A DNA stretch of 64,000 bases, taken from assembly GCA_036391685.1 (NCBI GenBank), contig DASVZK010000033.1:22701-86700 (forward strand). Direction: 5' to 3'. A model generated the notes under the pieces. The model searched no databases, was not told where the DNA came from, and was given only the letters and a program-made list of their open reading frames with translations. A program made the position numbers and the translations under genes. The DNA is from Ktedonobacterales bacterium. GTDB lineage: Bacteria > Chloroflexota > Ktedonobacteria > Ktedonobacterales > JADMIN01. Below, one piece after another: positions 2,855-43,871 of this stretch. Position 1 is the stretch's first letter. Each line of letters starts with the position of its first letter.

Positions 2855-4255
2855 ATGAGGCATCCCTTGCGCTGGCTCCTGGTCGCGGCGCTGATCGCCG
2901 CGCTGGGCAGTCTCACGCTGAGCGCGCGTGTCGCGCACGCGGCTGGAAGCTGCCCCGGCGTAGAGAGCAATGGTGTTTGCACGGTGACGGGAACGAGTCT
3001 GGGCGCGGCGTATTTGCTTGAAGTCCCTGACTCCTGGAATGGCGCGCTGGCGCTCTATAGCCATGGGTATGTCGCGCCAGGATCACCCAACCCCGCGCGC
3101 GATGCGGGTGACCCGGCGACCCGTGGGTGGCTGCTGGGCCACGGCTACGCGCTGGCGGGCTCGTCGTACAGCACGACCGGCTGGGCGCTGCAGCAGGCGT
3201 TCGCGGACCAGATGGACGTGCTCAGCATCTTCACGTCGGACTTCAGCAAGCCCACGCGCACGATCGCCTGGGGGCACTCGCTCGGTGGCATTATCACCGC
3301 CGGTCTGGTGCAACTCAACCCCGGAACATTCGACGCCGCGCTGCCGATGTGCGGCGTGGTGGCGGGCGGCATTGGCACCTGGAACGCCGCGCTGGATAGC
3401 CAGTTCGCCTTCAATCTGCTGGTGGCGGGCGGCGCGCTCAGCGTTGTCAATATCACCAACCCCGGCCTAAACCTGCACAATGCCGAAGTGGCGCTCGCCG
3501 CCGCGCAGGCCACCCCACAGGGCCGCGCGCGCATCGCGTTGGCGGGCGCGCTCGACGATCTGCCCGGCTGGTTTGACTCCGCCTCGCCAGAGCCCGCTCC
3601 CACCGACTACGCCACCCAGGAAGCCAACCAATACCTGTGGGACGCCAACGTGGACTTCCCCTTCGTCTGGGCGCTGCGCGCCGAACTGGAGGCCCGCGCC
3701 GGTGGCAATCCGTCCTGGAACGTGGGCGTGAATTATAACGTCCAGTTCTCACATTCCGTGGACCAGGCGGAGGTCGAGGCGCTCTACGCGCAGGCTGGCC
3801 TCAACCTCAGCGCCGACCTGGCGACGTTGAACGCCGCGCCGCGCATCGCGCCCGACACAGGCGCCGTGCAGTACCTGAACACCTACCTCTCGTTCAACGG
3901 CCAGATCTCCATCCCGATCTTGACCATGCACACCGCCGGCGATGGTCTGGTGCTGAACGAGCAGGAGAGCTCCTACGCCGCCGTTGTGCGCTCGCAGGGC
4001 AATAACAGCCTGCTGCGCCAGGTCTTCGTGCACCGCGCCGGCCACTGCGCCTTCACTCCCGCTGAGACGATCACCGCCTTCCAGACGCTGATCAACCGGC
4101 TGGACACTGGGGTGTGGGACGGTTCGACGAACCCGGATACGATGAACGCCGCCGCCGCCGCGCTCGGCGCCTACAATGTCGCCCCGCCGTCGTTCATGGA
4201 CTACCATCCCGCGCAGTTCCTGCGCCCCTTCACTGCCTACAGCAGCGCGCCATAG
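2855..4255 (+). CDS. secreted alpha/beta-hydrolase-like protein
   Basis: 466 aa. N-terminal signal peptide (LLVAALIAALGSLTLSARVAHA) and a GHSLGG nucleophile-elbow motif. GAGAGG lies upstream of the ATG. Confidence 0.7.
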   Translation: MRHPLRWLLVAALIAALGSLTLSARVAHAAGSCPGVESNGVCTVTGTSLGAAYLLEVPDSWNGALALYSHGYVAPGSPNPARDAGDPATRGWLLGHGYALAGSSYSTTGWALQQAFADQMDVLSIFTSDFSKPTRTIAWGHSLGGIITAGLVQLNPGTFDAALPMCGVVAGGIGTWNAALDSQFAFNLLVAGGALSVVNITNPGLNLHNAEVALAAAQATPQGRARIALAGALDDLPGWFDSASPEPAPTDYATQEANQYLWDANVDFPFVWALRAELEARAGGNPSWNVGVNYNVQFSHSVDQAEVEALYAQAGLNLSADLATLNAAPRIAPDTGAVQYLNTYLSFNGQISIPILTMHTAGDGLVLNEQESSYAAVVRSQGNNSLLRQVFVHRAGHCAFTPAETITAFQTLINRLDTGVWDGSTNPDTMNAAAAALGAYNVAPPSFMDYHPAQFLRPFTAYSSAP

Positions 4256-4472
4256 CTGGCGCCCGGCTTGCGGCGCTGGGGGACATACGGCCCACGACCG
4301 CATCTCCCCCGGCGCGTTTTCTTGCGACTGTAGTAGACCACAATGAATCCCCGACGCGAGAGGCGGCGCATTAGTCAGGAGATTTGCCAGTTCAGCCTCA
4401 CGTTTGTTAGCATGATGCGCGTGAGTCACGGGCGCGAACAGTGGGGACGCCCGCGCCGGGAAGGATAGCCGC

Positions 4473-5147
4473 ATGCGCCAGAACGGACCCACCCTCCCAG
4501 GGCATGATTGGAATGATCAGGGACCCGAAGCGGGTTCGCCGTTGGAACCATATTCATCCGGCCCGGCGCCGATCTGGCCGGATGCGCGAGCGCGCCGCGC
4601 GTTCTTCACCGAGTCCACCCAGGAGCCTCGAGGCTATGTCAGCGCCACGCTGTTCGCCGTGAGCGTGGGCGCGAATGTGGCGCTGCTAATCGGCCTGATC
4701 GGCCTGATTCTGCTGAGCTACTCGGGTGTGTTTCCGCCGGGCGGCGCGAGCCGGCTCGCGCCGGGCACGGCCCTGTCCCCGACTGGCAGCCCTACGCTCA
4801 CTGTGACACCGGCCCCCAGCCCGACCGCTGGCTCTTCTGGCTGGCTGCAGGTGTCGCCGGCGAGCGTGCGGCTGGGCTGCAACGGCTCCAAGCAGACGCA
4901 ATATGTCGTTCTGCGGAATACCGGGCCGAACCAGGTGTCATGGCAGGCCCAGTTGTCGGGCTCCGGCGATCAGGCCGGCGTGTCGGTCGACCCGCACGAT
5001 GGTACGCTCGACTCTGGCCAGAGCGTATCGATCCAGGTGCAAAACACGACACAGTCCAGCGCGCAGCAGGGCGTCATCCAGTTCGCCGCCTCGTCCGAGG
5101 ACGCCGGCGCGCCCGCCAGTGTCACGTATAACGCCGCGGGCTGTTAG
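4473..5147 (+). CDS. membrane-anchored protein with C-terminal Ig-like domain (paralog family, see 27214 and 29664)
   Basis: 224 aa with one TM segment (VGANVALLIGLIGLILL) and a Thr/Pro/Ser linker. The C-terminal ~110 aa (LQVSPASVRLGC...VVLRNTGPNQVSWQAQ...AAGC*) resembles the C-termini of the 27214 and 29664 proteins. Start codon uncertain. Confidence 0.6.
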   Translation: MRQNGPTLPGHDWNDQGPEAGSPLEPYSSGPAPIWPDARARRAFFTESTQEPRGYVSATLFAVSVGANVALLIGLIGLILLSYSGVFPPGGASRLAPGTALSPTGSPTLTVTPAPSPTAGSSGWLQVSPASVRLGCNGSKQTQYVVLRNTGPNQVSWQAQLSGSGDQAGVSVDPHDGTLDSGQSVSIQVQNTTQSSAQQGVIQFAASSEDAGAPASVTYNAAGC

Positions 5148-5186
5148 CGCGCGCGCCACCAGTCGTCGCTGGTTATTCATCACGCC

Positions 5187-5252
5187 CCGCGCGCGACGAC
5201 GATGTCATGCTTCGCCGCCCACTGGGCGAGGTCCTGGCGCTGGATGGCGGCG
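5187..5252 (-). pseudogene. displaced remnant of the VWA gene 3' end (direct-repeat copy)
   Basis: 66 nt matches 6039-6104 at 64 of 66 positions by hand alignment (offset 852 bp). Read on the minus strand it encodes AAIQRQDLAQWAAKHDIVVARGA*, versus AAIQRQDLTQWATKHDIVVARGEEAG* at the end of the intact VWA gene. Confidence 0.8.
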
Positions 5253-5287
5253 CGGCGCTGCATGTGTAGCGCAAGAATTTGAACTGG

Positions 5288-5722
5288 TTACGGCGCCGTC
5301 ATCCAGCCTGCGAAGGGATAGCGATGTTGCTGGAGTAGGTTCGCGCGTATGGTGATGCGCTGTGGCTCGTTGAAACGAAGCAGTATCTCGGTAGCGCGTC
5401 CAATCGGCGTGAGTGGATCGATGCGCGCGCCATCCCATCGAAAGTGGTCTTGCCACCGATCTGCGCGTGGATGATAGAGGCGCGTGACGGCGCCACTTAT
5501 GTGGTCAACTGAGGCGATATCTGAACCTTTGCTGTGATTGCAGGCGTAACAGGCGTAGGCGAGGTTATCGAGTTGCGTCTGACCACCATGTTTGGTGGCG
5601 ATGATGTGATCGGGCTGATGCGACACAAGCGCTACGTCATCGGGTAAACCGCAATACTCGCAACACTGACGCGCGCGAGCCACGACTTGTTTGCGTAGCG
5701 CGGGACTTACGCGCTCACTCAT
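5288..5722 (-). CDS. HNH endonuclease
   Basis: 144 aa. Contains CEYCG...DHIIATKHGG...NLAYACYACNHSKG, the HNH Cys/His motif set. The stop of the upstream small ORF overlaps its start by 4 nt. Confidence 0.85.
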   Translation of the reverse strand: MSERVSPALRKQVVARARQCCEYCGLPDDVALVSHQPDHIIATKHGGQTQLDNLAYACYACNHSKGSDIASVDHISGAVTRLYHPRADRWQDHFRWDGARIDPLTPIGRATEILLRFNEPQRITIRANLLQQHRYPFAGWMTAP

Positions 5723-5964
5723 GTGACCGAGCGCGGGACTTGCGCGCGAATCAGGGCGACGAGATCGTTGAGGATGAGAAGTTCGTCGAGTTGCCGCTTG
5801 TCCTCTATGCTCAAGGTTCCGTCATCTTCTTTGTCGAGCAGGCGCTCGATCAGTTTCTGTGCGCCTTTGGAGAGATGAAAGCGCGCGATGTCCTCGGGGG
5901 AAGGGCCTCGTGCGAAAAACGTCGCCACTTCCTCTACTGGACTCACTGTGGATGCATGACTCAT
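5719..5964 (-). CDS. small hypothetical protein coupled to the HNH gene
   Basis: The ORF runs up to 6012. The ATG at 5964 follows GGAGG. It is translationally coupled to the HNH gene by a 4-nt overlap. No family recognised. Confidence 0.5.
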   Translation of the reverse strand: MSHASTVSPVEEVATFFARGPSPEDIARFHLSKGAQKLIERLLDKEDDGTLSIEDKRQLDELLILNDLVALIRAQVPRSVT

Positions 5965-6023
5965 GGTCTGTTTGGCGCCTCCATCGTCATATGAGCGTCC
6001 TACCAGCATCATAGCACAGCCGT

Positions 6024-7235
6024 TCAGCCTGCTTCCTCGCCGCGCGCGACGACGATGTCATGCTTCGTCGCCCACTGGGTGAGGTCCTGGCGCTGGATGG
6101 CGGCGGCCATCAGGTCGGGGAAGAGGTCGGGCGTACAGGCGAAAGAGGGGACACCAAGGGCGGCCAGCGCGGCCGCGTGCTCGCCATGGTAGCCTGGCGC
6201 GCCGTGGTCGCTGAGCGCCAGTAGGCAGACCATCTGCGCGCCGCTGGCGACGATTTCCGCCGCGCGGCGCAACATGCCCTTGGCGTCGCCGCCCTCATAG
6301 AGGTCGGTGATCAGCACGACGATGGTTTGTGGCGGGCGCGTGATGAGCTGCTGGCAATAGGTTAGCGCGCGGTTGATGTCGGTACCGCCGCCAAGCTGCG
6401 TGCCGAAGAGCAGGTCAACAGGGTCCTGCAGGTCTTCGGTCAGGTCTACAATGGTGGTATCGAAGACCACCATGCGCGTGGAGACGGCGCGCAGGCTGGC
6501 CAGCACGGCGCCGAAAACGCCGCTATAGACCACCGAGGTGGCCATCGAGCCGCTCTGGTCCACGCAAAGGATAATTTCGCGCAGTGAGGAGCGCTTGCGC
6601 CCGTGGCCGACCAGCTTCTCGGCGATGATCGTCTTCAGGCTGGGCTGGTAGTTCTTGAGATTGACGCGGATGGTGCGGTCCCAGTCCAGCTCGCTGGGGC
6701 GCGGGCGGTTGGTGCGCGTGGCGCGACTGAGGCTGCCGCGCACCGCCTGGACCATCGCGCTCGCCAGTTTGCGCTCCAGCTCCTCGACCACCCGCCGCAC
6801 GACCTGCCGCGCGGTGTCTTTGGTCTTCTCAGGCAGGACACGGCTGAGCGAGAGCAGCGTGGCGACCAAATGGACGTCGGGCTCGACCTCAGCCAGCATC
6901 TCCGGCTCCAGCAGCATCTGGGTCAGGTTCAGGCGATCGAGGGCGTCGCGCTGCATGACGCGCACGGTGGAGCTGGGGAAGTAGGAGCGGATGTCGCCCA
7001 GCCAGCGCGCGACGTTAGGCGAGGAGCCGCCTAGCCCGGCGGAGCGCCCGCTATCATACAGCGCCGCCAGCGCGCGATCCATACCCAGATCGAAGTCGCT
7101 CAAGTCTCCCGCGCCCCGCCCTTTGCGGGATTGTCCCGCGGCCTGGGCGTCCGATTCAGCGCCTAGGACTAGCCGCCAGCGGCGCAGCCGCTCGGCTTCG
7201 GCCGGGGATAGGGGAGATGTAACGCGCTCGCTCAT
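6024..7235 (-). CDS. VWA (von Willebrand factor A) domain protein, CoxE-like
   Basis: 403 aa. MIDAS motif DQSGSM (DxSxS) in ILCVDQSGSMATS, followed by GGGTDI. Its start overlaps the stop of the upstream gene by 4 nt. Confidence 0.85.
   Translation of the reverse strand: MSERVTSPLSPAEAERLRRWRLVLGAESDAQAAGQSRKGRGAGDLSDFDLGMDRALAALYDSGRSAGLGGSSPNVARWLGDIRSYFPSSTVRVMQRDALDRLNLTQMLLEPEMLAEVEPDVHLVATLLSLSRVLPEKTKDTARQVVRRVVEELERKLASAMVQAVRGSLSRATRTNRPRPSELDWDRTIRVNLKNYQPSLKTIIAEKLVGHGRKRSSLREIILCVDQSGSMATSVVYSGVFGAVLASLRAVSTRMVVFDTTIVDLTEDLQDPVDLLFGTQLGGGTDINRALTYCQQLITRPPQTIVVLITDLYEGGDAKGMLRRAAEIVASGAQMVCLLALSDHGAPGYHGEHAAALAALGVPSFACTPDLFPDLMAAAIQRQDLTQWATKHDIVVARGEEAG
6039..6104 (-). repeat. 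in-gene copy of the 66-bp direct repeat bounding the HNH cassette
   Basis: Partner of 5187-5252, with two mismatches (6067/5215 and 6079/5227). Confidence 0.85.
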
Positions 7236-9556
7236 GCGGGGCCTCCTCCAAGAAGCTGCGCCAGGACGGGCAGAACCAGCGCCGCCCGCGCCTCATCCAC
7301 CGCGACCGCGACGTCCGCCGCGCCGGGCCGCCTCGCGCCGCCAGAGCGCAACTCACGGACCATGTCGCCCATCGCGCGGCGCTCGGGCGGCTGGAAGCCG
7401 GAGAAAGTCCGGCGCAGCAGCGGCAGCAGGGCGATGAACGTCTCGGGCGATTGCTCGACCAGCCAGTCGTCCAGCGCCAGCCAGAGGCCGTCCTGCAGCA
7501 GCAGCGTCAGCGCCGGGCCGCGCACGACGCCATCGACCCACGCCGCGGCCTCCGGCGCGGGGACAGCGGGCGAGAGCGCCAGCCCGGCCAGCCGCCGTAG
7601 CCCCTCGCCATCCAGCGTGCGCAGCTCCAAAAGCAGCCGCGCACAGCGCCCGCGCACGAGGGGGTGAACGCCGTCGCGAGTCGTCAGCGCGCGTAGCGTG
7701 GTCACCCACTCCGCGCGCTGCCCGGCGTCATCCAGCAGCGCCACACTGTCGTGCGCGGCGCCAATGGATTCCACCATCGTGGTGGCGGCGTCATCGTCAA
7801 GCGCGAGGCAGGCGTTGGGCAGCGCGATCAGCGCGCGCTCAAAGAGCGCGTCGTAGACCGGGCGCACCTCGCCGGCCCGCGCGCCGCGCACGTTGCTGTA
7901 ACGCGCAATGCGCGCCAGCGGCGGTAGCGCGTTGAGCAGGTGGTGGGCGTCTGTCGCGGCGGCGGCTTGCGCGTGGACGCGCTCCAGGACCCCCGCGACA
8001 CCGTCAGGCAGCCCAGCGAGCATCACGGCGTCTAGCAGCTCGGACAACTCGGGCAAGTCGCTGGCCTCGTCAGCGCGGGCCGTGGCGCGGGCGGTGGCGG
8101 CGCGCTCGATGGTGTTGCCCCAGATGCTGGCCTCGATCAGCGCGACGGCGAACTCTACCTGCCACTGGACCTGCCACAGTTCATGGAACGTCCCGGCTGC
8201 CAGCCGGTAGCCGCGCTGCGGCTTGCCCCACGGTACGCCGAGCAGCGCCAGGCGCCGCAGCAGGTGGCTGCGAGCCAGCGCGCTCTCTTCGCGCAAGTCG
8301 AGGTCGAGGGTCTTGAATGCGGTGGATGGTGGGAAGCGCAGGCGTTTCTGTTGCGCCGCCAGGTCGCGGGCCAGCGGGACAGTCGGCGTGTCCTCAGGGA
8401 CCGCGCCCATGCGTTCGCCGATCTCCAGCTTGTCGCGGATGAGCGTCATGCGCGCGGCCTCGCCGTGGCAGAGGACGGTCTGTGTCGCCTCATGCAGCTC
8501 GGTCAGGCCGGGCATTGGCAGGTCGCGCAGGGCGGCCAGCGCGCCAACCAGCCGCACGGCCTCGATGACGCTGGCGGAGGAGATATCCAGGCCCTCGGCG
8601 CGCAACGTCTGCGCCGCGCGCGTCAGCCAGCGGGCGGGGGCGCCATCCGGCGCGTCCCAGAGGTACTCATACCAGCCGGGCGAGGTGATGCCCGCGCCGT
8701 AGCCGCCCCGATAGGCCAGCCGTGAGTTCGTCCAGGGAACCCACGTCGCGGCGACTTTCATCTGCTTGAGGCCTTTGAGCAGCGCCGCGTCGGCGGCCTG
8801 CGCGCCCTTCGCGTCGAGGTCGCGCAGGGCGGGCGAATGCCAGGCGCCGGTGACGACGGCGATGCGCTGGTAGCCCTCGCGCGCGGCGGCGCGGATGCTT
8901 TGCCGCATGTGCGCCTCGCGCCGCGCCTCGCGCTCGTCGCGTGGTGACGCTCCGTCGCGCAGCGCGGTCATCGCTTCCAGGATGGACTCGAAAAAGCCGG
9001 AAATGTCGTGGCGCTGCTCGATCTGGCGCTCCCACCAGAGCTCATGGTCGTCGTAGCCCGCGGCCTGCGCCAGCAGCGCCAGCGGGTCGTCCCGCGGGTC
9101 AGGCGTCTGCGGCGTGGCCTGTCCAGGGTTTGGCGCCTGGACGGGAGCCACCGCGCCGGCCGCTTGCGCTGGCTCATCGTCGGGCTCAGCATCCGCCGGC
9201 GCTTCCACCGCGCCGTTGGACTCTGACTCTTCTGGCCCCTGGGCAAACTGCATGGCCTGGGGCAGGTCTATGAAGCGGGCGGGAACGCTGTGGGCGTGGG
9301 CGTAGGTCAGCGCTTGCCATTCCGGGGAGAAGCGCGCCAGTGGGAAGTAGACAGCGCACGCGGGCGCCTCGGGCGCGTAGACCAGCAACGCGACCGGCGG
9401 CGTCATCTCGGCGCGGGCGAGAAGCGGCAGGACTTCGGCGGCGTCGGGTGGGCCTTCGACCAGGACGATATCCGGGTCGAGTTGCGCCAGCGCCAGGGCC
9501 AGCGCCCGCGCGCAGCCGGGGCCATGGTGGCGGACGCCGAAGAACGTGACGGTCAT
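7232..9556 (-). CDS. large uncharacterised protein (DUF5682-like; name recalled from annotations of syntenic clusters, not verified)
   Basis: 774 aa with normal composition. The start lies 2 nt after the AAA+ gene stop, and the stop overlaps the VWA start. Confidence 0.7.
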   Translation of the reverse strand: MTVTFFGVRHHGPGCARALALALAQLDPDIVLVEGPPDAAEVLPLLARAEMTPPVALLVYAPEAPACAVYFPLARFSPEWQALTYAHAHSVPARFIDLPQAMQFAQGPEESESNGAVEAPADAEPDDEPAQAAGAVAPVQAPNPGQATPQTPDPRDDPLALLAQAAGYDDHELWWERQIEQRHDISGFFESILEAMTALRDGASPRDEREARREAHMRQSIRAAAREGYQRIAVVTGAWHSPALRDLDAKGAQAADAALLKGLKQMKVAATWVPWTNSRLAYRGGYGAGITSPGWYEYLWDAPDGAPARWLTRAAQTLRAEGLDISSASVIEAVRLVGALAALRDLPMPGLTELHEATQTVLCHGEAARMTLIRDKLEIGERMGAVPEDTPTVPLARDLAAQQKRLRFPPSTAFKTLDLDLREESALARSHLLRRLALLGVPWGKPQRGYRLAAGTFHELWQVQWQVEFAVALIEASIWGNTIERAATARATARADEASDLPELSELLDAVMLAGLPDGVAGVLERVHAQAAAATDAHHLLNALPPLARIARYSNVRGARAGEVRPVYDALFERALIALPNACLALDDDAATTMVESIGAAHDSVALLDDAGQRAEWVTTLRALTTRDGVHPLVRGRCARLLLELRTLDGEGLRRLAGLALSPAVPAPEAAAWVDGVVRGPALTLLLQDGLWLALDDWLVEQSPETFIALLPLLRRTFSGFQPPERRAMGDMVRELRSGGARRPGAADVAVAVDEARAALVLPVLAQLLGGGPA

Positions 9557-9558
9557 GG

Positions 9559-11910
9559 CTAGAGAACCTCATGGCAGGCGCGGTAGAGATCTTTCCAGCC
9601 TTCGCGCTCCTTGGCAACCGTTTGCAGGTATTCCAGCCAGACGACACGGTCTTGCACAGGATCCTTGACGATGGCGCCGGTGAGGCTGGCGGCCAGATCG
9701 TCCGCTTTGAGCGCGCCGTCGCCGTAGTAGCCGGCCATCGCCAGCCCGGCGCCCATCACTGAGATCGCCTCAGCGGTGGAGAGCGTACCGCTGGGGGTCT
9801 TCAGCTTGGTCTTGCCGTCCAGCGTCATACCAGAGCGCAATTCGCGGAAGACGGTGACGATACGGCGGATCTCGTCCAGCGCGGGCTTCTCGGCGGGCAG
9901 CTCCAGCGCCTGGCCCAACTGGGCGACGCGCCGCTCGACGATTTCGACCTCCTCGTCCATCGTCTCCGGCACGGGCAAGATGACGGTATTGAAGCGCCGC
10001 AGCAGGGCGCTGGTGAGCTCATTGACGCCCTTGTCGCGGTTGTTGGCGGTGGCGATGAGGTTGAAGCCCCTGCTCGCCTGGACCTCACTATCCAGCTCAG
10101 GGATAGGCAGTGTCTTCTCGGAGAGGATGGTGATCAGCGCATCCTGCACCTCGGCTGGCATGCGTGTCAGTTCCTCGATGCGCCCGATCCTGCCCTCACG
10201 CATCGCGCGCATGATCGGGCTGACGACCAGCGCGGTCTCCGACGGCCCCTCGACCAGCAGCCGCGCGTAGTTCCAGCCGTAGCGGATCGCCGCCTCATCG
10301 GTCCCCGCCGTCCCCTGCACCAGCAGCGTGGACTCGCCGCAGATCGCCGCCGCCAGATGCTCGGCCACCCAGCTGTTGTGAATGATGAAGTCATTCGCTA
10401 CGAAATTGTGAGTATCGGCCATGCTCAAGTCATAGACTTGGTGTTCACCGATTGGTTCAATTGCGACGATGACATCCCAATAGATGTCGCTCGCGGCAAG
10501 TTGGCGAAGTTCCTCACTATTCGCAAGTCGCGCAAGGCGAAGTAAGCGTGAACGTGAAATGCTCTGATGTGGGCGTACTGAGGCGCTTGCTGCAAGTTTG
10601 CGCTGATTTATGTCGGCCTGCAACAAGGTCCCCACACTGGCAAATCCTGCGGTTACAGCGGCGCTTTGGAGACGCGACCATATTTGCTGTGGGATAGTAT
10701 CGAGATTGGGATTAACAGTTCCCTTGAAAGACGCCAAAAAAGCGTTCGCTTCTTGGATATACTTCCGCCCTAAGAGTCCAATCTCATTGAGGAACGTGCG
10801 ACACTGGTCAGTTCCATGAATGAACAGGCGGTAGTGCCCGCTCGATAGACGGCGGACACGCGCGTTGATGCCAAAGCGCAATAGTAAGTGTTGCACGCCC
10901 TGTATCAGCCGCCTCGATTTGCTGGCGTAGTCAATGGTGGCCTGTTTCTTCGGCGTCTCACGGATGTGAAGGAACCCATCGCCGCTGAACAGGCGATTGA
11001 GGAAGAGCGCAACCTGCCGTTTGGGCAGCGTAAAAACCAAATCGGGAATGAATTTGGTCCCTGAGTTAGTCCCCATCTGACCCAGATCGCGCAGCCATTG
11101 TGTGCAGGGATTCGTGGTCTTTCCGCCGCGCATGCCTCCCGAAACGCTGCACGTCCTACCGTCAGGATACCAATGCGCCTGGAGGCTGGGGAAAGCTTCA
11201 ATAACCGCCTTACTGAAATCCTCTTTCATCTCAGGATTAGTGTTAGAGAAGTACGGTAGCTCTTGAGTGAGCGTACCTTCAGCAATGAGGTGCCCAAGCA
11301 ACTTGACGTGCGCGTCACTTGTTTCTGCTGTCCCAAAATATGGCAACGCACGAGGAAGGGCGATTCTGCTGCCCACTTCGAGTTTTTCAAGTGGTTGCCA
11401 ACCATCCATTGTGAGGAATGGATGGTTGAGCGTCACCTCGATTTCTCGCCCTAGATGTGTCGTAACGCGATAGCATGGGCGAACGCCGTTATCCACGTAG
11501 TCGCTCGGCGCTTGCGACTTGAGATGATACTCACCATCTAGTGTAGCCACCTCAACATCCCGCGTTTTGCATGCTTCAGCAACAGTTACACGCTTCCCCG
11601 TCCGCGTATCCAGAATCAGCATGTCGTGTTTGACACATTTCGCTGTCCCGGGCAGGCCATACAGCAGCAGGGCGCGGTCAGTGGCCAGCGTGGCGATGGC
11701 GATCTCCATCAACCGGGCCGAGCCGATGTATTTGGGCGAGACCGCGAAGCCATTGGGTAGCGTGCCGCCGAGCAGGTAGGTGCGCACGGCCCAGGGCGAG
11801 AGCTTCCAGTTCGGCGGGCGCTGGCGGTCGTCGGCTTTGGCCAGCTCGGCCAGTTCCTCAGCGTACTGCGTCTCGGCGTGCTGGCGGAGGACGTTTGGGA
11901 GAGTGGTCAT
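9559..11910 (-). CDS. MoxR/AAA_5-class AAA+ ATPase interrupted by an intein
   Basis: 783 aa. Walker A is split as LLYGLPGTAK | intein | SWVAEH. A Walker B-like RIGRIEELTRMP and a MoxR-like C-terminal region follow. The exteins total 362 aa. Confidence 0.9.
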   Translation of the reverse strand: MTTLPNVLRQHAETQYAEELAELAKADDRQRPPNWKLSPWAVRTYLLGGTLPNGFAVSPKYIGSARLMEIAIATLATDRALLLYGLPGTAKCVKHDMLILDTRTGKRVTVAEACKTRDVEVATLDGEYHLKSQAPSDYVDNGVRPCYRVTTHLGREIEVTLNHPFLTMDGWQPLEKLEVGSRIALPRALPYFGTAETSDAHVKLLGHLIAEGTLTQELPYFSNTNPEMKEDFSKAVIEAFPSLQAHWYPDGRTCSVSGGMRGGKTTNPCTQWLRDLGQMGTNSGTKFIPDLVFTLPKRQVALFLNRLFSGDGFLHIRETPKKQATIDYASKSRRLIQGVQHLLLRFGINARVRRLSSGHYRLFIHGTDQCRTFLNEIGLLGRKYIQEANAFLASFKGTVNPNLDTIPQQIWSRLQSAAVTAGFASVGTLLQADINQRKLAASASVRPHQSISRSRLLRLARLANSEELRQLAASDIYWDVIVAIEPIGEHQVYDLSMADTHNFVANDFIIHNSWVAEHLAAAICGESTLLVQGTAGTDEAAIRYGWNYARLLVEGPSETALVVSPIMRAMREGRIGRIEELTRMPAEVQDALITILSEKTLPIPELDSEVQASRGFNLIATANNRDKGVNELTSALLRRFNTVILPVPETMDEEVEIVERRVAQLGQALELPAEKPALDEIRRIVTVFRELRSGMTLDGKTKLKTPSGTLSTAEAISVMGAGLAMAGYYGDGALKADDLAASLTGAIVKDPVQDRVVWLEYLQTVAKEREGWKDLYRACHEVL
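10375..11637 (-). mobile_element. intein with LAGLIDADG homing-endonuclease domain (421 aa)
   Basis: Begins with Cys (TGT, 11637-11635, CVKHDMLILD) and has block B TLNHPF. Two LAGLIDADG motifs are present (LLGHLIAEGT, FLNRLFSGDGF). It ends VANDFIIHN (AAC, 10377-10375) followed by +1 Ser (AGC, 10374-10372). The DNA is visibly more AT-rich than the exteins. Confidence 0.9.
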
Positions 11911-13484
11911 AGCGGCAACACTTTCACTAGGCGCTCGCGCAGGCGGATGGTCTCGGCGAACGCGTTCAGCTGGTTCTTGAAGCGGCTACTGTAGGGGTTC
12001 TGGGCTTCGGGAACGGCGATGGGTTCGCGCGCCACCGTGAACGCGGTTTCCGGCATCGCCAGCGCCGCGTCGTTGAGCGTGGTATCCCATGGGTCGGTGG
12101 CGCGCGCCTTGGTGTCAGTGACGACCGCGAAGGCGCGCAGGCCGTCGAGGTAAGCCTGGGCCACGGCGACGCTCCACGGGCGCGGCAAGAGGTCCAGCGC
12201 CGCCCGAAGACCCATATCCGCGTATGTGTCAGGCGCGGCGAGCACCCGCAGGACGAATGCGTCCAATGTGGCGGGCGGCAGCAGCGGCGCGAGCGGTCGG
12301 CAATAGCTGGCGCGGTCCGCGTCCATCTGCGCAATCTCTTTGTCAGGCATTGCGAGCAGGGCGTCCCATAGGGCGAGCGCCCAGTCGCGAGCCTGAAAGC
12401 TGGTTGTCGCGGTACTCCAGCTTTCCAGGATGCTGGCGCGCCATTTCGATGCGGCGCTGGCGGCGATAAGCGCGGCGGGCGCCACGCCAAAGCGCTCTGT
12501 CCAGTGCGCTGGCGGTACGCGCTCAAGGAGCGCCGCCAGCCAGAACGCGCGCTGGCCATTCTTGTTCGAGATGGATTGGGTAGGCAGACCGTCGCGCGCC
12601 CAGCTGCCGTCTATCGCGGCGGGTGGGTCGGCGTCGAGCGCCGCGCCATCGAAGGTGATGGCGGCGTTGGCGCGGTCGCGGAGACGCAGCGCCAGCGCCG
12701 ATGCCGGAAGATCGGTGAGCAGGCGCGCGGCGACGGCGCGCACGCGCTCGCCACGGTCGTCTAGCGCTGCCTCTAACAGCGGCTCATCGTCGGGCGCGAG
12801 ACCGGTGGCGAAGGTTTCGAGCATGCTGGCGCGGGTCTCAGCCTTCTCCTTCTTCCAGACGCCCTCGAGCCAATCGCGCGCCAGCGCCGGGTCTTGAGTG
12901 CGCAGGCGACCCAGCAGCGCGATCCGCTGCCTTGTCGTTCCCTCCTGCCAGATGGTCTCGGCGTCGGGCGGCAGGGCATCGCGCACGCCGGGCAGCGTGC
13001 GCTCCAGCAGCCACGACCATTCGGGATTGTGGCTCGCCAGCCAGCGTCCGCGCTCTCCCGCCAGCGGCCCCAGCGCGGCGCGCAGCTCGTTGGTGGCGAA
13101 GGCGCGCGCCTTCTTGAGGGTGAGTGGCAGCAGCGTGGGTGGCAGCAACTCGCCGCGCCGCTCCATCCGCGCGCAGGCTTCCAGCAGCAGGTCGTCGCGC
13201 CCGGTGACGACGAGGCCTTCGATCAGCGCGGCGGCGTCGGGCGGGCAGATTGGGCGCTCCTCCGTCTTCGCGGCTTCCAGCGGCGCGACGCCACGCGCGG
13301 GCAGGCGTCCCGCCGCGTGGTAGATGGCGGATTCAGCCGCGCGCAGCAGCAGATCTCGCCCCGCGTCCTCGCCCGGCAGCGGAATGCCATCGACTGGCGC
13401 GCCGGTGGTGGGAGATGCGTTTGGGCTGTGCGCCAGACCGGCCAGCGCCTGCGCGGTCAGCGAATTGGGGCGGGTCGCCGTCAT
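11907..13484 (-). CDS. uncharacterised helical protein (DUF5691-like; name recalled, not verified)
   Basis: The ORF extends to 13727, but the ATG at 13484 forms an ATGA overlap with the SWIM gene stop. 525 aa, Leu/Ala-rich and predicted helical. Its stop overlaps the AAA+ start by 4 nt. Confidence 0.65.
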   Translation of the reverse strand: MTATRPNSLTAQALAGLAHSPNASPTTGAPVDGIPLPGEDAGRDLLLRAAESAIYHAAGRLPARGVAPLEAAKTEERPICPPDAAALIEGLVVTGRDDLLLEACARMERRGELLPPTLLPLTLKKARAFATNELRAALGPLAGERGRWLASHNPEWSWLLERTLPGVRDALPPDAETIWQEGTTRQRIALLGRLRTQDPALARDWLEGVWKKEKAETRASMLETFATGLAPDDEPLLEAALDDRGERVRAVAARLLTDLPASALALRLRDRANAAITFDGAALDADPPAAIDGSWARDGLPTQSISNKNGQRAFWLAALLERVPPAHWTERFGVAPAALIAASAASKWRASILESWSTATTSFQARDWALALWDALLAMPDKEIAQMDADRASYCRPLAPLLPPATLDAFVLRVLAAPDTYADMGLRAALDLLPRPWSVAVAQAYLDGLRAFAVVTDTKARATDPWDTTLNDAALAMPETAFTVAREPIAVPEAQNPYSSRFKNQLNAFAETIRLRERLVKVLPL

Positions 13485-14878
13485 GCGCGCGCCTCCGTCA
13501 GCGGGGTATATGTCCCGACGGCGATGACGCCTAGCGGCAGCAGCGTCTCGCCATTCCACTCCACCATCACATCTACCGGCTGGCCCCCAGAGACGGCCAG
13601 CAGCCGCCAATGCTCGCGCGCGACCAGCGGCAGCGCGTCGCCATCGGCGTCTAGCAGCCGCCAGTCGCCCTCCGGCGTCAGCGTCGGCGTCACTCCGCGC
13701 AACACGCCGCCCAGGCGCCCAAGCCATGGATCACACGCCAACCCTCCGGCATAGGCCTGAAGAAGCCCTTCGACCCGCGTGTAACTTGCCGGGTCCCAGT
13801 TCGCGAAGGCGGGCTTCGCGGCCGCCGGGCCCGTAGCCGCGGATTTATCCGCCTGGCCGGACGTGACGATTTTGGCGCGCAGAGGGTATGCGCCGGGCCA
13901 GTAGCGCAGGTCGGCGGTCAGGCTAGAGCCAGGGAGATAGACCTCAGCGAAGGTCCCGAAGGAGGGCGAGTACTGCATGATGACGGCGGGACGCTGGCTG
14001 CGCTCGCCCAGCAGCCATGTGCGCTGGACATGGATGCGCTCGCTGTCGTCCACCCACTGCCCCAGGACCAGCCAGCCGTCGCTGACCAGTTCTCCGCGCG
14101 CGTCTACCTCCTCGGCGCTCAGCGCCCATCCGGCCACCTGGCGCACCGTCTCGCGCAGCGCCGGACTGAGCGAGTCCAGACACCTCCAGGCCTGAGAGAG
14201 CAGGGCAAGCTTGCCAAGCTCGGCCAGCAACCGTTCTGGCCAGTCCGCTGCGGAGCCGGGGATGCCTGCCATGCGGCGCAGGCGGTTGGCCGCGCCGGGG
14301 ACCTGCGCGTCCACCATGCGCGCGGCCTGCGCTTCCCAGAAGCTGGCGCCTTTGACCTCCAGCCCGGCGATGCCGTTGCGCATCAGGTCGCTCAGCCAGA
14401 GATCGAGATTGTCGAAGCCGCCCGCCATCAGCCGCTGGCGCTTCTCGATGCGCCTGGACGCGACCTTGTCGGCGGCGGCCCGCGCGGGGGCGTCATCCGT
14501 GGCGTCGGCGGGCTGGACGGGCGTGTCAGTGTTGGGCGCGGCCGCCTTGAGCGCGGCCTTGGCGGCGCGCTTGGTCAGCCAGCCGCTCATCCACTCTGGC
14601 GGCTGCGTGGTGGGAACAGTGTCATCGGCGGCGAGAAGGAGCAGGCCGATACCGTGCTTGCAGGGGAATTTGCGACTGGGACAGCTACAGGCGACGGTCA
14701 GGTTGGCGAGATCTATCTTGACCTGATACAGCGCGCTACCCAGGCATTCGCCCCAGAGCCCGGCGTCATCACGTCCCACGCTTTTCCAGTGGCGCGGCGC
14801 GGCCAGCTTGCGGCCCGCCTGCGCGGACGCGGTATCGGGCGTGAGCGCGAGGACCTGCTCAGCGGATATGGCTGGCAT
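13481..14878 (-). CDS. SWIM zinc-finger protein
   Basis: CxCx6CxH signature (ACSCPSRKFPCKHG) near the N-terminus. The ATG at 14878 is preceded by GGAAGGAGA. The track ORF extension to 15085 lacks coding character. Confidence 0.8.
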   Translation of the reverse strand: MPAISAEQVLALTPDTASAQAGRKLAAPRHWKSVGRDDAGLWGECLGSALYQVKIDLANLTVACSCPSRKFPCKHGIGLLLLAADDTVPTTQPPEWMSGWLTKRAAKAALKAAAPNTDTPVQPADATDDAPARAAADKVASRRIEKRQRLMAGGFDNLDLWLSDLMRNGIAGLEVKGASFWEAQAARMVDAQVPGAANRLRRMAGIPGSAADWPERLLAELGKLALLSQAWRCLDSLSPALRETVRQVAGWALSAEEVDARGELVSDGWLVLGQWVDDSERIHVQRTWLLGERSQRPAVIMQYSPSFGTFAEVYLPGSSLTADLRYWPGAYPLRAKIVTSGQADKSAATGPAAAKPAFANWDPASYTRVEGLLQAYAGGLACDPWLGRLGGVLRGVTPTLTPEGDWRLLDADGDALPLVAREHWRLLAVSGGQPVDVMVEWNGETLLPLGVIAVGTYTPLTEARA

Positions 14879-15178
14879 GCGCGGCGTCTCCTTCCACCAG
14901 AGGGGATGGCGCTGTAGAACCGTCGAAATCCTGTTCTCCGCCAGTATGCCGTAGCCGGAACCCCATGTATAGCCCCCATTGCCGGGGCCGCCTGCAAAGG
15001 ATGGCGGAGCGCGAATTGCATGGTCGGTGGTATGCGATACAATAGCGTGATGGGCGCTGGCCCTCACCCCTTGACGCTGTCCCACGGAGAGAGGGGAGTC
15101 AGAGTGGCCAGTACGCCTCGCGTGGCCATGAAGCTGGCCCCGCTGGATAATCCAATCGCCACAGGGAGAAACCCATAC

Positions 15179-39500: not shown

Positions 39501-39826
39501 TCTACGCCACCGGTGGCACCGCGAAGATGCTCACCGACGCCGGGCTCACCGCGGCGGAGGTCGCGCGCATCAGCGACGAGGACGATACCATCCTCACCCT
39601 CATCCGCACGCGCACCGTCCAACTGGTGATCAACACCATCACTGGCGGCTCGGGTCGCGCGCGCGCCGGCATCGAGATCCTCGACGGCTTCAAGATCCGC
39701 CGCGCCGCCGTCGAGGCCAACATCCCCTGCCTCACCTCGCTTGACACCGCCCGCGCCCTGGTCGAAGCGATGCGCGCGGGCGACGAGGCGCTCTGCCTGC
39801 CGTTTGTGGCGTACCGGGAAGGATAG
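36545..39826 (+). CDS. carB: carbamoyl-phosphate synthase large subunit
   Basis: 1093 aa. Duplicated ATP-grasp halves ([21 protein letters not shown] and [20 protein letters not shown]) and a C-terminal MGS-like domain. Confidence 0.95.
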
Positions 39827-40661: not shown

Positions 40662-40685
40662 GCTGCTCGATCCGCTTGCGCGCCG

Positions 40686-40752
40686 ATCGAAGCGCTGCGC
40701 GCGGAGGATGAGGCGCTCTGCCTGCCCTTCGTGGCGTATCGCGGGGGGATAG
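40686..40752 (+). pseudogene. displaced carB 3'-end remnant (copy 2)
   Basis: Encodes [21 protein letters not shown] followed by TAG, versus car[22 protein letters not shown]. The nucleotide alignment to 39761-39826 is roughly four-fifths identical by eye. Weaker similarity continues upstream to about 40640. Confidence 0.75.
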
Positions 40753-43736: not shown

Positions 43737-43871
43737 CTGCGAGAGCGACACATCCTCAATGGAGTCGTCGCCGGAGACCCCACGCCCAATCGCGGCGGCG
43801 CGGCCTTCGTCAGCTTCGTCCGCCGCGACAACACTCCGCCGCTCTTCGTGGCGTATACCGCGGGGAAGGGA
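43737..43871 (+). pseudogene. decayed carB-like fragment (copy 3)
   Basis: An 18-nt exact match ggcgcggccttcgtcagc (43797-43814 versus carB 39416-39433) sits inside a longer similar stretch (LRERHILNGVVAGDPTPNRGGAAFVSFVRRDN versus [28 protein letters not shown]). It is followed by cttcgtggcgtat, identical to 40727-40739 (PLFVAYTAGKG versus LPFVAYREG). Confidence 0.55.

Follow-up and report, generated by a model that had tools for sequence, protein, structure and literature searches.

A two-gene HNH cassette at the end of a VWA gene in a Ktedonobacterales genome: a probable mobile selfish module inserted with target duplication

The closest described counterparts of the locus analyzed here are restriction-modification (RM) units and the mobile open reading frames (mORFs) of fungal mitochondria. 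The locus lies in a metagenome-assembled genome of 88 contigs from the Ktedonobacterales (Chloroflexota; GCA_036391685.1), within 64,000 nucleotides of contig DASVZK010000033.1 (positions 22,701 to 86,700) that we refer to as the window. It comprises a segment (5253-6039) that carries an HNH nuclease gene and a small partner gene, hereafter the cassette, between two copies of the 3' end of a gene encoding a VWA protein. We interpret this segment as a mobile selfish two-gene module, formed by a nuclease and its putative antidote, that was inserted at the end of the VWA gene with a long target duplication, and we place the probability of this interpretation at about 0.68. Features of the locus and of its operon are given in window coordinates and lie on the minus strand.

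Insertion of RM gene complexes with long target duplication was reported by Nobusato et al. 2000, as cited in PMC2853133. Furuta, Abe & Kobayashi 2010 (NAR 38:2428; PMC2853133) described RM units that had been inserted without mobility genes and with target duplications of 46-423 bp. In that study, the repeats correspond to one target in the genome that lacks the insert, in some cases overlap gene 3' ends, and are enriched in the flanks of these units over those of average genes; one of the cases is a solitary short McrA-type HNH gene, and DNA breakage is seen as a common property of the genes inserted in this way (PMC2853133). In Glomus sp., Beaudet et al. 2013 (PMC3630166) described mORFs at atp6, atp9, cox2 and nad3 that combine an inserted C-terminus with the native C-terminus, and the same source cites Paquin et al. 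1994 for the atp6 mORF of Allomyces macrogynus.

An insertion between two copies of a VWA gene end

A repeat search returned a 66-nt direct repeat (5187-5252 and 6040-6105) whose copies are identical at 64 of 66 positions (97%) with a spacing of 853 nt, compared to at best 47 nt at 72% identity for other direct repeats in 3000-9000. The flank-against-flank blastn comparison of the two VWA 3'-end copies yielded E = 4.7e-28, confirming a repeat that had been noticed in an earlier reading made from the sequence alone (the sequence-only reading). The left copy lies where that reading had placed it, and the right copy, assigned to 6039-6104 with an offset of 852, is shifted by one base. The right, or proximal, copy encodes AAIQRQDLTQWATKHDIVVARG of the functional VWA C-terminus and completes an open reading frame (ORF) of 403 amino acids (6024-7235; VWA_CoxE-type, PF05762, E = 1.3e-49), which terminates in AAIQRQDLTQWATKHDIVVARGEEAG and whose tail, defined by alignments, occupies 6024-6039 (EEAG and the stop codon). 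The left copy translates as RRAAIQRQDLAQWAAKHDIVVARGA up to its stop and forms, together with a tail, an orphan VWA 3' end (5180-5252, stop at 5180-5182) that was delimited by the repeat search and by orthologue alignment and that reads AAIQRQDLAQWAAKHDIVVARGA at its end. Both translations agree with those given by the sequence-only reading.

Orthologues of the VWA gene were found in 15 related genomes, at 60-85% identity and always directly after a DUF5682 gene. The HNH gene, the small ORF and the second VWA 3' end are absent from all 15 orthologous operons, for which we checked ~1.5 kb of downstream sequence in 13 loci and 0.2-0.5 kb in the other two. The VWA protein of L006, the closest orthologue (85% identity, same genus), ends in VVARGEGV; at this locus, a convergent gene ends 17 bp away, and both window copies align to a single site (L006 1500-1570). 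The segment 5253-6039 is thus an insertion that restores the host ORF, as had been proposed from the sequence, with the proximal copy completing the ORF and the distal copy left as an orphan. The expected form of the empty site, a VWA gene ending in VARGA and followed by a neighbor of the type encoded at 4473, was not found; both the VWA end and the downstream gene are different in L006. Neither did we encounter the contrary arrangement, in which all orthologous loci would carry the HNH pair in the absence of a repeat.

The insert spans 787 bp and, as first described, holds only a small ORF and the HNH gene, both co-oriented with the operon and coupled to each other by the overlap of the small-ORF stop and the HNH start codon (ATGA, 5719-5722). 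Neither the ORF list nor Pfam revealed an integrase or transposase in it, the HNH domain (PF01844) being its sole Pfam match. The GC content is 0.55-0.61 across 5200-6099, compared to 0.62-0.77 in the flanks. A leader of 59 nt (5965-6023), delimited by alignment, separates the VWA stop from the conserved start of the small ORF; a promoter scan found no promoter-like site in this leader, and the cassette is therefore probably expressed by read-through from the operon. On the other side, alignments define a 35-nt trailer (5253-5287) between the HNH stop and the orphan copy, and the trailer/orphan junction (GCAGCGCCG followed by CGCCGCCATCC) falls inside a CGCCGCC microhomology.

At the two variable positions of the repeat, the orphan encodes Ala, as do the orthologues, and the functional copy encodes Thr. 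These two Ala-to-Thr changes and the last 3-5 codons are the only differences between the proximal and orphan ends, which are 97% identical, and the proximal copy has not been recoded. The tail at 6024-6039 is unlike the orphan tail, and its start (GGCGAGGA) is common to the proximal copy of L025, a locus of a congeneric genome described below; judging from these alignments, this tail probably travels along with the cassette. When short segments of the copies were compared, the core 66 nt grouped by genome, whereas the tails and the 5' 30 nt grouped by position.

The arrangement is the one described for mORFs, in which the gene core, an inserted C-terminus, an endonuclease ORF and a relic of the native C-terminus follow each other, the host ORF is preserved and relatives present empty sites. 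The endonucleases of mORFs, however, are of the LAGLIDADG or GIY-YIG type, often fused in frame and without a partner gene, whereas the cassette associates an HNH nuclease with a partner. Furthermore, the inserted C-terminus of mORFs is foreign, with 64-81% identity to the native one, in contrast with the 97% identity of the two copies in the window, and mORFs are organellar, whereas the cassette resides on a bacterial chromosome. The description of the VWA gene as one with a replacement 3' end, also put forward by the sequence-only reading, consequently stands in that the proximal copy completes the ORF, and not in that this end would be recoded or clearly foreign.

The invaded operon consists of five genes in the order SWIM, helical, AAA+ (with an intein), DUF5682 and VWA. 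The DUF5682 gene (7232-9556) directly precedes the VWA gene. The AAA_5 ATPase gene of the operon (9559-11910) is split by a LAGLIDADG intein (PF14890, PF14528).

The HNH nuclease gene and its partner

The HNH gene (5288-5722) encodes a protein of 144 amino acids (PF01844, E = 3e-12) with a zinc finger of the form CxxC...CxxC and an intact DH...N...N catalytic motif; C21, C24, H39 (DH39), N53, C58, C61 and N62 are invariant across the family. The protein was modeled with a predicted local distance difference test (pLDDT) score of 92, and the top whole-chain fold matches are PtuB proteins of Septu and retron-Septu complexes (template modeling [TM] score 0.57-0.63), followed by EcoKMcrA, Cas9 HNH domains and the Gme nicking HNH. 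PADLOC returned weak PtuB matches only (E of at least 3e-5), and neither Pfam nor the fold search revealed a NUMOD or any other DNA-binding module. The HNH protein thus shares with Septu PtuB and McrA nucleases a CCCC zinc-finger HNH core and its best fold matches. It differs from them in being ~60-140 residues shorter, in its small helical partner, in the absence of an adjacent PtuA (no PtuA ATPase gene is present in the cassette) and in match scores far below the family thresholds. Its assignment to homing-type HNH nucleases was not borne out, the fold being nearest to effector and restriction HNHs (PtuB, McrA) and away from known homing HNHs.

The partner gene (5719-5964) encodes 81 amino acids when read from a conserved MSHAS start identified in the family alignment; the longest ORF starts at 6012 (5719-6012, 97 amino acids), and the start at 5964 is the probable true one. 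The partner matches no family in Pfam, NCBIfam or PADLOC, and its close relatives are all annotated as hypothetical. Its conserved core of ~70 residues is predicted to fold into four helices (pLDDT 88), for which the fold search gave no significant match (best, YnzC/DUF896, E = 0.8). Longer forms of the partner present an extra N-terminal strand-helix with sub-threshold RelB/CopG similarity (E = 3e-4 and 8e-3). Between the window and L025, at a synonymous divergence (dS) of ~0.6-0.7, the ratio of nonsynonymous to synonymous divergence (dN/dS) is 0.09 for the HNH gene and 0.21 for the partner gene, and both cassette genes are kept by purifying selection.

In its genetic organization the pair resembles type II toxin-antitoxin systems, in that the small gene lies upstream and overlaps the enzyme gene that follows it (ATGA): a small ORF ends at the HNH start in 93 of 103 family loci. 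The resemblance extends to a patchy, multi-copy distribution with frequent pseudogenes, to the N-terminus of the long partner forms, which is weakly ribbon-helix-helix (RHH)-like, and to the retention of the cassette in the congeneric genome G009 after deletion of the neighboring operon. Unlike type II toxin-antitoxin systems, the cassette matches no recognized toxin or antitoxin family. The pair most likely encodes a nuclease and a protein inhibitor (toxin-antidote), with the partner as the candidate inhibitor of the HNH protein. That it acts as an addiction or defense-type nuclease-inhibitor module appears somewhat more likely than not. A cassette that is intact in G009 after the loss of the adjacent operon, together with the low dN/dS, fits an addictive or selected module better than a decaying homing gene.

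Related insertions in other assemblies and at other genes

The layout of the window was found in four independent assemblies (L025, L163, L165 and L166) and is therefore no assembly artifact. L025, from a congeneric genome (G009/G041), encodes an HNH protein with 87% amino acid identity and presents the order proximal VWA fragment, leader, small ORF, HNH, trailer and orphan VWA end (113-124 bp, 87-89%). L025 keeps the gene order of the window toward queF (membrane protein, oxidoreductase, queF), and its VWA homology begins only at ~codon 345-350, with the cassette and both VWA ends intact. The cassettes of the window and L025 have 82% DNA identity, compared to 84% for queF and 87% for recA. 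Since the divergence of the cassette is close to that of these host genes, the insertion is an old event that predates the split between the two and is shared by both. The metagenome contigs L165 and L166 carry the unit as in the window and L025, with both VWA ends; in L163, the HNH gene is truncated after 26 codons by unrelated sequence.

On its 5' side, the orphan in L025, L165 and L166 is 65 nt longer than in the window, where the shorter orphan is bounded by the CGCCGCC microhomology, suggesting a later deletion. In these three loci the orphan 5' ends break within ~20 nt of one VWA position (AACGC, ~codon 345), and the residual proximal-fragment 5' ends in L025 and L163, whose left flanks differ, also fall within ~20 nt of ~codon 345. 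This cluster is compatible with a recurrent break at ~codon 345 or, equally, with a mobile unit carrying a VWA fragment that starts there. The orphan 5' segment 'ASMG' is common to L025 and L165, and the orphan tails resemble that of the empty site. Together with the shared proximal tail (GGCGAGGA), these short segments would fit a reciprocal exchange, although they are too short to separate the two routes considered below.

Other features of these contigs are also worth describing. Relative to window positions 6186-15160, L025 (G009/G041:C6, 3345-3470) has lost the whole SWIM/AAA+/DUF5682/VWA operon, from queF to VWA codon ~345, and the endpoint of this deletion is the 5' end of the orphan copy. 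The metagenome contig L163 (2-559 and 1454-1643) carries the proximal VWA fragment and the small ORF beside a TIR-domain gene (PF13676, E = 1e-21). In L164 (220-1754), a lone partner gene (72% identical, no HNH) is followed by an alpha/beta-hydrolase gene and by a homologue (58%) of the BACON/Ig-like protein of the window (4473-5147); L164 may represent a decayed cassette near a similar neighbor.

An intact gene followed by a cassette and by an orphan 3' end of the same gene was found in at least five events besides VWA, and hence in at least six in all, in agreement with the suggestion of the sequence-only reading that a class of small 3'-end cassettes exists. The targets are an Aminotran_5 (SufS-like) gene in L077/L078 (orphan of ~153 codons, 96% identical over the first 209 nt), an LPG_synthase_TM gene in L107 (repeat of 143 bp at 93%), a 505-aa ORF in L113 (62 bp at 97%), an ABC transporter gene in L140 (290 bp at 97.6%, with the cassette inverted relative to the target) and, in L161, an ORF without Pfam family that is possibly no gene (130 bp at 94%). 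In L107 the original operon junction can still be recognized, as the orphan stop overlaps the start codon (ATG) of the gene that follows. L140 has an empty counterpart in a sister genome (L168), where the gene is single-ended and without cassette, and both 290-bp copies align to one L168 site. In nearly all cases the duplicated stretch ends, on its 3' side, no more than a few codons away from the target stop, and 15-35 nt separate the HNH stop from the downstream repeat copy in 6 of 9 cases. Across events, repeat length ranges from ~60 to ~460 bp, and only a two-gene unit of 0.7-1.0 kb lies between the repeats. Two planctomycete loci (L032 and L034) were rejected as clean gene-end cases, because both flanking copies (ending in EQYLILVKCRDEKQQVELLERFGREGLECRALLA) are short pieces of a gene that matches no Pfam family.

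The L107 and L114 cassettes are ~92% identical over the two genes together with ~20 nt upstream of the small ORF and ~20 nt past the HNH stop, and have unrelated flanks, which indicates a moving unit of ~0.8 kb that is not bound to one target sequence. Of the site-specific or homing-type insertion envisaged by the sequence-only reading, the ORF-restoring insertion is retained, and sequence-specific homing is hypothetical. A perfect sigma-70 consensus (TTGACA, 17 nt, TATAAT) is located between the new stop of the target and the cassette in L107 (2545-2573) and is not present in the 92%-identical L114 cassette. Directly beyond the orphan ABC-transporter end of L140 (257-714, reverse-complemented) lies a HicB/HicA-like toxin-antitoxin pair, and hence a second addiction-type module at that junction.

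Relatives of the HNH protein, at 35-77% identity, occur in Chloroflexota, Planctomycetota, Acidobacteriota and other groups, and a metagenome scan yielded at least 474 confirmed matches among 600 candidates; the profile for the scan of HNH loci was built from 8 sequences. The family is patchy among 41 related genomes, 17 of which harbor 1-5 copies, several of them with stop codons or fragmentary, and the HNH-partner pair occurs in unrelated contexts across several phyla. We compared the 1.5 kb upstream with the 1.5 kb downstream of each cassette (blastn, E < 1e-4). Direct repeats were detected at 12 of 65 cassettes in the first testable set (inverted repeats at 2 of 65, 37-39 bp) and at 4 of 25 further loci from related genomes (inverted, 0 of 25). 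Among 500 random 750-bp windows of this genome, used as a control, 11 presented direct and 5 inverted repeats. Flanking direct repeats are therefore ~8-fold enriched at the cassettes (16/90 versus 11/500; Fisher p = 8e-8), and the seven strongest background repeats, when inspected, all corresponded to tandem paralogues or repetitive extragenic palindromic (REP)-like elements, with no orphan gene ends among them.

Terminal redundancy, as possible circular forms would present, was seen in L045 only (99 bp). This 1317-bp Chloroflexales contig carries a distant small ORF and an N-terminally truncated HNH gene between identical 99-bp ends (1-99 and 1219-1317), which contain a hairpin (CCGCACGATTGCCGC...GCGGCAATCGTGCGG); it may represent a circle or a tandem arrangement, or equally an assembly loop due to flanking repeats. 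GC-rich hairpin repeats of a different type (CCCCCTCTCC...GGAGAGGGGG, 'SPCGERG' when read through) occur near junctions in L025 (3400-3435), L026 (3570-3620) and G000 (C32/C67), and repeats of this type explain several of the background direct repeats in this genome.

The gene-end parallel at carB that the sequence-only reading had pointed out is real, with a different cargo. The carB 3' end (39747-39816) recurs at 40672-40741 (70 nt, 83%), and a third piece lies at 43765-43866 (67 nt at 81% and 26 nt at 85%). The cargo consists of a 183-aa minus-strand ORF and a 721-aa ORF, neither of them with a Pfam family, and includes no nuclease.

The cassettes and the RM insertions are alike in being selfish nuclease units without transposase or integrase, of atypical GC content and absent from the orthologous locus of relatives, and their repeats are of similar length (46-423 bp for RM insertions, ~60-460 bp for HNH cassettes). 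Three of the four criteria of Furuta et al. 2010 describe the cassette: it is absent from the orthologous locus, it is flanked by direct repeats of more than 30 bp on a single-copy target, and the insert is smaller than 20 kb and has no mobility gene. The fourth, the presence of restriction and modification homologues, does not, since the cassette has no methyltransferase, although that study did accept its solitary McrA-type HNH gene. Its partner is instead a small helical protein, so that protection, if any, would be exerted by protein inhibition instead of DNA modification. The cassette further differs from RM insertions in that duplication nearly always affects an ORF end, and in belonging to an uncharacterized family of HNH and partner genes of Chloroflexota, Planctomycetota and Acidobacteriota.

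Origin and mobility of the cassette

The duplication could have arisen from a double-strand break within or close to the target-gene end, which for VWA would map near codon ~345, repaired from DNA in which the cassette lies behind a homologous gene end. Homology would then be required on the gene side only, and the opposite side would be closed by illegitimate or microhomology joining. A circular copy bearing a fragment of the gene end would also give this product, through a single crossover. By either route, approximately the last 55 VWA codons would have been duplicated; the proximal copy and a short cassette-borne tail would keep the VWA ORF intact, the distal copy would become a dead orphan, and the window orphan would later have been shortened by 65 nt, leaving the 66-nt repeat. 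It is possible, at slightly below even odds, that the HNH protein itself makes the break, as suggested by the enriched footprint, the clustered breakpoints and the role that Furuta et al. attribute to DNA breakage.

Several observations weigh against the interpretation of the segment as a mobile nuclease-antidote module. No further DNA copies of the cassette are present in this 88-contig genome, where a search with the cassette returned just an HNH of 33% identity, located on a different contig, and a chance match of 31 nt. About 82% of the family cassettes have no detectable flanking repeat (~18% do), and the repeats at L047, L076, L085, L104 and L114 are non-coding or REP-like, contain no gene ends and may be due to chance or unrelated. 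The RHH-like N-terminus is missing from the window partner, for which no antitoxin family was matched, and cutting by the HNH protein, its toxicity and its neutralization by the partner are putative. With its 64/66 identity to the orphan, the proximal copy is not clearly foreign, and a donor-derived 'replacement end' as in the mitochondrial mORF model would be hypothetical here. Finally, the occurrence of the layout twice at carB with a non-nuclease cargo indicates that a host recombination route independent of the HNH protein could make the same footprint.

A free-standing homing element of the mORF type would account for part of these data. In such an element, the HNH protein would cut cassette-less VWA genes at ~codon 345, repair would copy the donor end together with the cassette, and the partner would be an accessory or specificity factor. 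The presence/absence polymorphism at one site within the genus, the clustering of breakpoints at that codon in three kinds of junction, the proximal tail common to the window and L025 with orphan tails like that of the empty site, and a layout identical to that of fungal mORFs, where the endonuclease drives mobility (PMC3630166), all speak for it. We nevertheless deem it unlikely, because the targets of near-identical cassettes are unrelated and no fewer than six different genes have been hit, because a proximal copy that is not recoded would lack immunity, and because the fold is nearest to PtuB and McrA, with no NUMOD or other DNA-binding module found. Moreover, strong purifying selection long after fixation and a conserved partner are both atypical of homing genes. 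The pair might, on the other hand, be passive cargo, that is, an ordinary toxin-antitoxin or defense pair that arrived on transforming DNA and was integrated by homology-facilitated illegitimate recombination anchored on a conserved gene. The two carB duplications with their non-nuclease cargo, the CGCCGCC microhomology at the trailer/orphan junction and the 82% of cassettes without repeats are in line with this possibility. It is made doubtful by the ~8-fold excess of flanking repeats over random windows, with none of the seven inspected background matches showing the orphan-gene-end layout, by breakpoints at one VWA position in different contexts and by the argument of Furuta et al. (PMC2853133) that DNA breakage is a shared feature of genes inserted in this manner.

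The proposal, raised as an alternative by the sequence-only reading, that the HNH pair is an effector or accessory of the AAA+/DUF5682/VWA operon draws on its co-orientation, its position 59 nt after the VWA stop and its lack of a promoter of its own. The absence of the pair from all 15 orthologous operons means that the HNH protein is no effector of the operon as such. In addition, the pair exists without the operon in G009, the VWA fragment and small ORF lie beside a TIR gene in L163, and the pair is found in unrelated contexts in several phyla, so that only a lineage-specific co-option could still be contemplated, and this we regard as extremely improbable. Integrative elements often target the 3' ends of genes and tRNAs and carry a replacement end, and toxin-antitoxin modules are frequent cargo of islands. 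A gene 3'-end target with a replacement end and toxin-antitoxin cargo would therefore be typical of the remnant of an integrase island, in which the 66-bp repeats would be the attL and attR sites of an element targeting the VWA 3' end whose integrase has since been lost. Such an origin is very unlikely, given that only the two-gene unit of 0.7-1.0 kb lies between the repeats in all of the at least six independent events, that repeat length varies from ~60 to ~460 bp and that the insert contains no recombinase gene or fragment.

At RM genes, insertion with long target duplication is a recurrent finding, for which we know of no mechanistic explanation. The cassette would add a second, unrelated nuclease module with that footprint, made of an HNH protein and a small protein partner without a methylase and backed by family-wide statistics, and it connects this footprint with the 'replacement gene end' architecture of mitochondrial mORFs in fungi. 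As a compact two-gene unit of 0.8 kb, it is suited to a laboratory test of the break-and-duplicate step, and orphan gene ends may be used as annotation markers of horizontally acquired cassettes in Chloroflexota. In G009 the cassette has outlived the operon that it invaded, as would be expected of an addictive module.

Beyond the reading of the segment as a selfish module inserted with target duplication, the pair might constitute an autonomous, recombinase-free mobile element (a 'nuclease-antidote transposon'), a speculative extension that we consider improbable at present. In that case, the HNH protein would break gene ends, the 0.8-kb unit would integrate and duplicate up to ~460 bp, and the repeats would permit the unit to be excised as a circle, or amplified in tandem, and to enter homologous genes anew. 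A virus-like life cycle was reportedly hypothesized for restriction-modification genes by Kobayashi's group and, to our knowledge, has never been demonstrated. If the cassette were such an autonomous element, this abundant soil family of Chloroflexota, Planctomycetota and Acidobacteriota (at least 474 matches) would offer a tractable system in which to study that cycle.

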